Shown piece by piece: positions 26,316 to 26,543 of a DNA stretch of 46,422 nucleotides. The position numbers and the translations under genes were made by a program. Source of the stretch: an uncultured Muribaculaceae bacterium (GTDB lineage Bacteria; Bacillota_I; Bacilli_A; RF39; UBA660); assembly GCA_964514935.1 (NCBI GenBank), contig CAZEVZ010000001.1:1-46422 (forward strand), given 5' to 3'. Within the stretch, counting starts at the first letter, position 1. Each line of letters starts with the position of its first letter. Below the pieces are notes generated by a model. The model was given only the letters and a program-made list of their open reading frames with translations, had not been told where the DNA came from and made no database searches.

Positions 26316-26529
26316 TTGTCAACTATAGGTTGCAAAGTCCTTAAGTATTTTACTTGAGGACTATCATTTCTATTAAAATAATACCATAAAATAAGGAAAT
26401 GTGCAATAAAAATGGTCGTAATTTTTAAGAAAAAATTTTGTGTCAAATTTTCTTCATATTTTTGATAATCTCTTTATTTATAGGCATCTACGGAGATTAT
26501 AAAAGTCCTCAAGTAAAATACTTAAGGAC
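26316..26529. promoter_or_regulatory. Switch cassette B: perfect 25-bp inverted repeats around an outward-facing promoter (candidate invertible promoter)
   Basis: The dyad is at 26316-26336. IR-L is GTCCTTAAGTATTTTACTTGAGGAC at 26337-26361, and IR-R at 26505-26529 is its exact reverse complement. The minus-strand promoter is TTGCAC (26406-26401), 17 nt, TGgTATTAT (26383-26378). Confidence 0.65.
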
Positions 26530-26543
26530 AAAATGGTGATAAT

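Follow-up and report, generated by a model that had tools for sequence, protein, structure and literature searches.

The window, which is the entire contig of 46,422 bp, carries a gene family whose members are preceded by short cassettes bounded by inverted repeats, and these cassette-gene units are scattered among housekeeping genes. The cassette singled out by the first-pass annotation, here called c2, has nth (25676-26305) upstream of it. Other housekeeping neighbours are lexA (28097-28756, minus strand), a radical-SAM gene, a MiaB-like gene, a Clp-type AAA+ ATPase and priA. Contigs identical or nearly identical to the window were found in ruminant-gut metagenome assemblies. The window also holds a full-length OLE RNA at 20433-21017 (Rfam RF01071, 360 bits), after which comes a 174-aa ORF without a Pfam match (21025-21549), and a T-box leader near the right contig end (44897-45087; RF00230, 95 bits, just over the gathering score).

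Cassette c2 (26337-26529, plus strand) begins with the 25-bp repeat IR-L, GTCCTTAAGTATTTTACTTGAGGAC (26337-26361, plus strand), and ends with IR-R (26505-26529, minus strand). The perfect inverted repeat and the 143-bp spacing described in the annotation were re-read from the window at these coordinates: IR-R is the exact reverse complement of IR-L at 25/25 bp, and the segment between them, which has no strand of its own, spans 26362-26504. The repeat, which is the proposed recombination site, can be read in two ways. It consists of a 9-nt arm, the 7-nt spacer TATTTTA and a second 9-nt arm, and it is also a near-palindrome in itself (11-3-11) with an 11-bp hairpin stem. The gene begins at ATG 26544, which is 14 nt past IR-R and has the SD sequence GGTGAT ahead of it, and here too the window reads as annotated.

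What the annotation had missed is that c2 is not unique, that its 25-mer is nearly palindromic, and that a conserved block reaches from the cassette into the gene. At three mismatches or fewer the 25-mer has eight matches in the real window and none in 100 dinucleotide-preserving shuffles. The eight matches make up four cassettes, 92-98% identical, all on the plus strand and all with the same internal orientation. Besides c2 with its two perfect repeats, they are c1 (13224-13415), c3 (27265-27457) and c4 (31440-31632). IR-L is perfect in all four, and IR-R has three mismatches in c1, two in c3 and two in c4, every one of them within the inner 6 nt. Each cassette ends 14-15 nt before the start of its own paralogue: 13430-14494 for c1, 26544-27164 for c2, 27472-28056 for c3 and 31648-32640 for c4, all on the plus strand. 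Segments bounded in this way were also seen at about 10 places in related loci, where further paralogues have cassettes of their own.

At the left end of the window (1-818, plus strand) is the 3' part of a fifth family gene, whose 5' end and presumed cassette lie off the contig. A syntenic contig, L008, matches window positions 5-706 with its positions 10213-10917, and a cassette is present there before the counterpart of the fifth gene. Directly after the partial gene the window has a 2,846-aa ORF (1107-9647) with one sub-threshold Ig-like Pfam match, and this ORF is syntenic in L008.

The conserved block runs from about 20 bp 5' of IR-L to about codon 60, which is about 180 bp of coding sequence, with 92% mean column identity; past about codon 60 the proteins diverge. 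The upstream part of the block, TTGTCAACTATAGGTTGCAAA (26316-26336 at c2, plus strand), is common to all four cassettes and is possibly an accessory site. The extent of this conservation bears on whether the cassettes could be a MITE-like transposable element, an element about 190 bp long that ends in 25-bp terminal inverted repeats and had spread to four sites. Several copies of such a length with such ends are what a MITE would look like, but the conservation continues past both repeats, into the upstream flank and into the coding sequence, and every copy stands at the same distance and in the same orientation before a family gene. No target-site duplications were seen in the flanks. Outside the clade, scans of genome, metagenome and viral collections gave only single sites, which were taken as chance or terminator matches. 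The MITE reading is excluded because conservation passes both repeats and because every copy precedes a family gene, and we give it hardly any probability at all.

The proteins of the family begin MKKIWK(D/E)N(A/T)KLILIV. They have in common a signal/anchor, a motif of about 28 aa, YDNTTSGLxSTNVQxALDELY, and a short helical stalk, and they then continue into unrelated heads. The N-terminus, MKKIWKDNAKLILIV..ASGATYAATT, has no lipobox cysteine. The c2 gene follows this plan in 206 aa, with a signal/anchor N-terminus, the conserved stalk motif and a C-terminal head that is unique to it; c1 encodes 354 aa, c3 194 aa, and c4 330 aa when counted from the conserved MKKIWK start (the ORF list begins it at 31636). 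The stalk motif (residues ~34-65; for example window 26643-26738) was also found in a library of 1.84 billion proteins, with up to 45 copies per giant protein in proteins of up to 5,298 aa, so it is a widespread repeat module and not specific to the family.

The heads of c1 and c4 are DUF6273-like, and that of c1 resembles phage receptor-binding proteins. The structure of the c1 head was modelled with pLDDT >90 over residues ~100-270. Compared with predicted proteins of gut phages that carry the annotations DUF6273, receptor-binding protein or tail-collar fibre, the head (residues ~100-354) gave a best E of 2e-25 at 32% identity, with a TM of 0.66; it also matched the Thomasclavelia ramosa IgA peptidase structure 9qa6 weakly (E 4e-4). 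Another family member, from the related locus L013, has a Gp10_C / PHROG tail-protein head. Relatives of the c2 head are few, and the c2 structure model was unusable (pLDDT 55). As a query, full-length c1 returned 1,764 homologues and the 67-aa N-terminus alone returned one protein. Exact look-ups of the c1 protein and of protein P0015 gave no match. The cassette is absent from the distant homologues (~48% identity; L010-L012, a tandem array).

Within the c2 segment, the annotation had described a strong promoter on the minus strand. The element is present and faces away from the gene at 26544, as described: -35 TTGCAC (26406-26401), a 17-nt spacer and the TG-extended -10 TGgTATTAT (26386-26378; hexamer 26383-26378) occupy 26378-26406, and they make up the only conserved promoter-like element in the segment. 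Its strength was overstated. TTGCAC agrees with TTGACA at 3/6 positions, and a generic consensus promoter scan of this AT-rich DNA returned four sites against 2.9 by chance and did not set the c2 site apart, which it lists as TGCACA-16-TATTAT with TG. We accept it as a predicted promoter because its -10 is conserved, rather than for the strength of its consensus. The TG-extended -10, ATGGTAT (ATACCAT on the other strand), is the longest invariant inner block over 14 cassettes from at least three organisms, and it is invariant even in the distant cassettes of L002, which precede an unrelated gene family. The wider pattern, TTGCAC/TTGCAA-17-TGnTAnnAT, is kept across cassettes, pointing away from the gene in the window and toward it in the related cassettes L007, L014 and L015b. 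Judged by sequence, the segment holds a promoter that could drive the adjacent gene in one orientation only. The invariant -10 block sits 14-17 nt from the repeat, so transcripts starting there would cross the repeat.

The weak plus-strand match that had also been annotated in the c2 segment (TGTCAA-17-GATAAT, or GTGTCA-18-GATAAT) is present in the window, and it is not conserved in relatives. A comparison of the cassettes of the window and of its relatives found no conserved plus-strand promoter upstream of IR-L. In c3 the -10 (27305-27310) reads TATTAG rather than TATTAT, with a C at 27305 on the plus strand, and this substitution may weaken the c3 promoter.

The repeats themselves could act on transcripts. 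In the outward direction IR-R runs into AAAA and does not resemble a terminator. In the inward direction a scan flagged both c2 repeats as terminator-like hairpins, and as such they would insulate the gene from upstream read-through. The same features suit a fixed region which does not invert at all, in which the 25-mers would be operators of a dimeric regulator (with DNA looping over 168 bp), partners in leader-RNA pairing, or terminator or insulator hairpins. The hairpin of each 25-mer fits this explanation, as do the terminator-like inward readings and the 26-bp stem that RNA across both repeats forms (z = -6.7). It is at odds with the lack of a conserved plus-strand promoter upstream of IR-L and with an Rfam search, in which no family was found at the cassettes. 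Comparison with a related species bears on it more directly.

Evidence on inversion came from DNA fetched around the closest homologues of the c1 protein. In a related species, cassettes stand before the same gene family, with 82-84% DNA identity to window 20825-26731. One of its contigs, L013 (sample ERZ1461689), has the DnaD-nth-cassette-gene synteny of the window, and its orthologous cassette is in the window's orientation, which we call OFF. A second contig, L014 (sample ERZ28654070), carries the same downstream protein, P0016, has no mismatches to L013 over 8,547 bp downstream, and represents the same strain in a different sample. It ends 56 nt upstream of the flank, where it reads ...TTATGGTAATATTTAAATAGAAATAGGTG|TCCTTAAGTAATTTACTTAAGGAC with the -10 toward the gene (ON). 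These 56 nt were compared with the L013 cassette, and 0/56 positions mismatched when the cassette was inverted in silico, as against 20/56 without inversion. Among the fetched cassettes the centre trinucleotide AAT/ATT occurs only at the L013/L014 locus, so the L014 junction is not a chimera with another cassette. Both orientations were therefore found at one locus, the orthologue of the window's own.

A third contig, L015 (sample ERZ1461854), adds to this. The order at its end is upstream flank, IR, segment in the ON orientation and IR, after which the contig's own upstream flank returns as an exact reverse complement. Read backwards, this fold-back has the upstream flank joined to the OFF orientation, and both junctions (U-IR-ON and U-IR-OFF) were therefore in the assembly graph of one sample. 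The segment of L007 is ON as well, and both of its flanks are normal. Aligned with other cassettes, the inner segments of L007 and L015b reach 86-94% identity once they are reverse-complemented and only 58-64% when left as assembled. Counting the cassettes with a readable orientation, the related species has about 10 OFF and 3 ON. For the organism of the window, only the window's orientation was seen: c2, c3 and c4 are also covered by three further contigs from two samples, and the collinearity of these contigs with the window places the three cassettes in the same orientation there. The annotation's claim of a phase-variable ON/OFF switch captured OFF is thus supported both at the level of the cassette family and at the orthologous locus in the relative (L013/L014, with L007 and L015).

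Seven public metagenome contigs break in or at a cassette (L004, L005, L014, L015, L016, L017 and L018), which fits assembly breaks induced by the repeats, by inversion or by both.

The L013/L014 pair also shows where the exchange took place. The inversion left no mismatches when the exchange point lay between a lower bound at position 1-5 of the 25-nt repeat (the trials on that side were 0 and 5) and position 19, and points outside that interval left one to three; the exchange point was mapped to repeat positions 2-19. The inner 6 nt of IR-L had travelled with the segment into IR-R, so strand exchange occurred inside the shared core. Over 14 cassettes the conserved core is TCCTTAAGTA-NNN-TACTT, with varying inner 6 nt; in the related species the full repeat is (A/G)TCCTTAAGTA-NNN-TACTTT(A/G)TAAC. 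The centre trinucleotide is TTT, AAT, TTA, AGT or, in L002a, AAA, depending on the cassette, and it always matches within a pair. L015a likewise has an outer-arm change, CCTCAAG, on both sides.

This covariation within pairs suits base pairing as well as recombination, and to that extent it is in keeping with a fixed region. The palindromy of the single repeat, however, shrinks from an 11-bp stem in the window 25-mer to 5-bp arms in the relative while the inverted-repeat relation between the two copies is kept, so palindromy is not the conserved property. Neither the precise inversion at the orthologous locus nor the flipped paralogues are predicted by a fixed region, which we consider very improbable. 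The comparison points instead to an invertible promoter.

Neighbouring tandem cassettes may differ in their centres, as in L013 (5681-5874 and 6983-7177, with AAT and TTA) and in L002 (AAA and AGT), and different centres could prevent recombination between neighbours. They are not a rule, as the tandem pair c2/c3 in the window has TTT in both. In L002, a rabbit-gut Bacilli MAG, two cassettes (391-570 and 2603-2784) have the same IR core and stand before an unrelated gene family, MRKIKNKNMMVLVV..., so the site is older and more widespread than the MKKIWK family. An exact scan for the IR core GTCCTTAAGTATTTTACTT gave two loci in genome contigs, one in metagenome contigs and none in viral contigs, and these nearly empty scans indicate an element of a narrow, poorly sampled clade. 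Among the exact-scan loci only L002 has real cassettes: L001 is a lone terminator-like hairpin before an unrelated gene, and at L003 the core is matched by chance. With a degenerate core, 40 matches turned up in viral contigs; none had a partner, and they were put down to chance. No occurrence of the IR sequence was found in the literature searched.

The 9-7-9 reading of the site, with its TA-NNN-TA spacer, has the size of a lambda-Int-type core site, and for that reason our guess is that the recombinase would be a tyrosine recombinase. A serine-invertase segment of the Hin/Gin type was considered and rejected, as it would be expected to have 26-bp sites (12-2-12) together with an internal or adjacent invertase gene and enhancer, and here the sites are 25 bp with an odd, 3-nt variable centre, the segment has no gene and no resolvase is nearby. 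A Pfam search of the window proteins of at least 100 aa found no Phage_integrase, Resolvase, Recombinase, IS110-type or transposase domain over the 46 kb, and no recombinase is among the annotated genes of the fetched related loci.

This brings up a serious residual rival, namely that the cassettes descend from invertible promoters, the recombinase has been lost or become inactive here, and all copies are frozen OFF. Such a locked switch would account for the single orientation in the four cassettes and in the three other contigs, for the absence of recombinase genes from 46 kb, and for the wear in the copies, three of which (c1, c3 and c4) have a mismatched IR-R and one of which (c3) has a damaged -10. 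All of these, together with the moderate consensus match of the promoter, also count against reading the cassettes as working invertons. But IR-L is perfect in 4/4 cassettes and c2 is perfect on both sides, and cassettes that are 92-98% identical with intact ORFs downstream are unexpected if the genes are permanently silent. OFF is also the majority orientation in the relative, where flipping is demonstrated. On balance we judge the locked switch unlikely, and we prefer an invertible promoter whose copies in the window are still able to flip.

Our preferred reading, which we hold to be probable, is that the c2 element is an invertible promoter (an inverton), one of at least four independent copies on the contig, and that it was assembled OFF. 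A site-specific recombinase encoded elsewhere in the genome would bind the two 25-bp sites, and strand exchange inside the core would flip the 143 bp between them. In the assembled orientation the promoter with the TG-extended -10 would fire leftwards, away from the gene. After inversion 26488 would be the last position of the -10, 56 nt ahead of ATG 26544, and transcription would run through IR-R, which is followed by A's and not T's, into the gene (ON). With its own switch for each paralogue, a population would show varying sets of surface proteins, alike in signal/anchor and stalk and different in their heads. We infer that the window's own copies continue to flip, and that the orientation with the -10 toward the gene is the ON state.

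A further feature of the segment may concern the OFF orientation. The inner 17-mer CAAATTTTCTTCATATT (26444-26460, plus strand) is complementary at 16/17 positions to the start-codon region of the gene (26541-26557) in that orientation. The same complementarity is seen in c3 and c4 and in the L013 cassettes. In the relative two lysine codons read AAA AAG instead of AAG AAA, and the inner segment is altered to match at the corresponding position, with 14 exactly complementary nt in both L013a and L013b. The duplex energies of the pairing were not significant against shuffles in this AT-rich DNA. The 17-mer could lock the translation of read-through transcripts, bind a protein or be left over from an inverted duplication; it is its positional conservation and its covariation with the gene start that suggest an anti-start role.

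The annotation had likened the element to fimS, to the polysaccharide promoters of Bacteroides fragilis and to the switches of Clostridioides difficile, which is right for the kind of system, although the layout of one switch per paralogue is nearer to another. Invertons are widespread, Firmicutes included, so the kind is already well known, and the present cassettes do not change the understanding of how such a switch works. The layout most resembles the promoter switches of the mpl (P35) genes of Mycoplasma penetrans. In both, a dispersed multigene family of surface proteins has one small promoter cassette flanked by inverted repeats for each paralogue, and the lineage is low-GC Bacillota or related to the Mollicutes. 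The mpl elements are about 135 bp long with inverted repeats of about 12 bp, as against an inner segment of 143 bp and repeats of 25 bp here. In M. penetrans, 38 lipoprotein genes are spread over several loci, and most of them are considered to switch independently of one another, each through an invertible promoter next to it (Horino et al. 2003, as summarised in PMC2268961). The products here differ in having no lipobox cysteine and in combining a signal/anchor and stalk motif with heads which, where tested (c1/c4 and the L013 Gp10_C head), are like phage receptor-binding or tail proteins. They have no Pfam or sequence relation to P35, their heads being DUF6273- or Gp10_C-like, and while candidate recombinases lie near the mpl gene clusters, none lies near the present cassettes. 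As the proteins are not lipoproteins and the sequences are unrelated, the present system falls outside the mpl/P35 family.

The invertons of B. fragilis for polysaccharides and outer-surface structures (Mpi, Tsr) are alike in being dispersed promoter cassettes with one inverted-repeat consensus. Their recombinases act on several loci for surface structures, and the present loci, with no recombinase nearby, recall such globally acting enzymes. They belong to another phylum, have another repeat sequence and control whole biosynthetic operons, whereas single genes are controlled here. In C. difficile (cwpV, flagellar, pdcB) the phylum is the same, Bacillota, short repeats surround a small regulatory segment and several of the genes are surface-related. 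There, one tyrosine recombinase, RecV, acts on several sites to which it is not linked. Those sites differ from each other in sequence, and some of the switches act after transcription initiation, through a terminator or leader, and not by moving a promoter; the present cassettes, by contrast, are near-identical copies before paralogues. The promoters of pdcB and pdcC are described as invertible (PMC11868660). In fimS of Escherichia coli and hin of Salmonella, too, the orientation of a promoter segment flanked by inverted repeats sets the expression of an adjoining surface-structure gene. These are single loci with the recombinase adjacent (fimB/fimE) or inside (hin), whereas there is no coding sequence in the present 143-bp segment. 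As the element has no recombinase within or next to it, it is not a unit of the Hin or fimS type.

Taken together, the parts would compose a larger picture, in which one unlinked recombinase runs gene-specific promoter switches across the genomes of a clade of uncultured rumen and gut Bacilli, with diversified 9-7-9 centres, an anti-start lock in the OFF state, and a combinatorial, phase-variable repertoire of adhesins or decoys with phage-like heads (tested for c1/c4 and the L013 Gp10_C head). We offer this picture tentatively, as it is rather doubtful that all of its parts hold at once.

Phase-variable promoters have been well studied in Bacteroides, enterobacteria, C. difficile and mycoplasmas, and hardly in uncultured rumen Bacilli. 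The contig is a clean multi-copy example from that group, in which the 25-bp site is defined, the exchange interval has been mapped and ON and OFF variants occur naturally. Cassettes of this kind break metagenome assemblies, and pairs of TCCTTAAGTA-NNN-TACTT about 170 bp apart are a signature by which the recombinase might be found through co-occurrence. For the organisms themselves, combinatorial variation of adhesion, or of interaction with phages or other cells, may follow, because the switched proteins are cell-anchored and the tested heads (c1/c4 and the Gp10_C head of L013) are homologous to phage receptor-binding or tail proteins.
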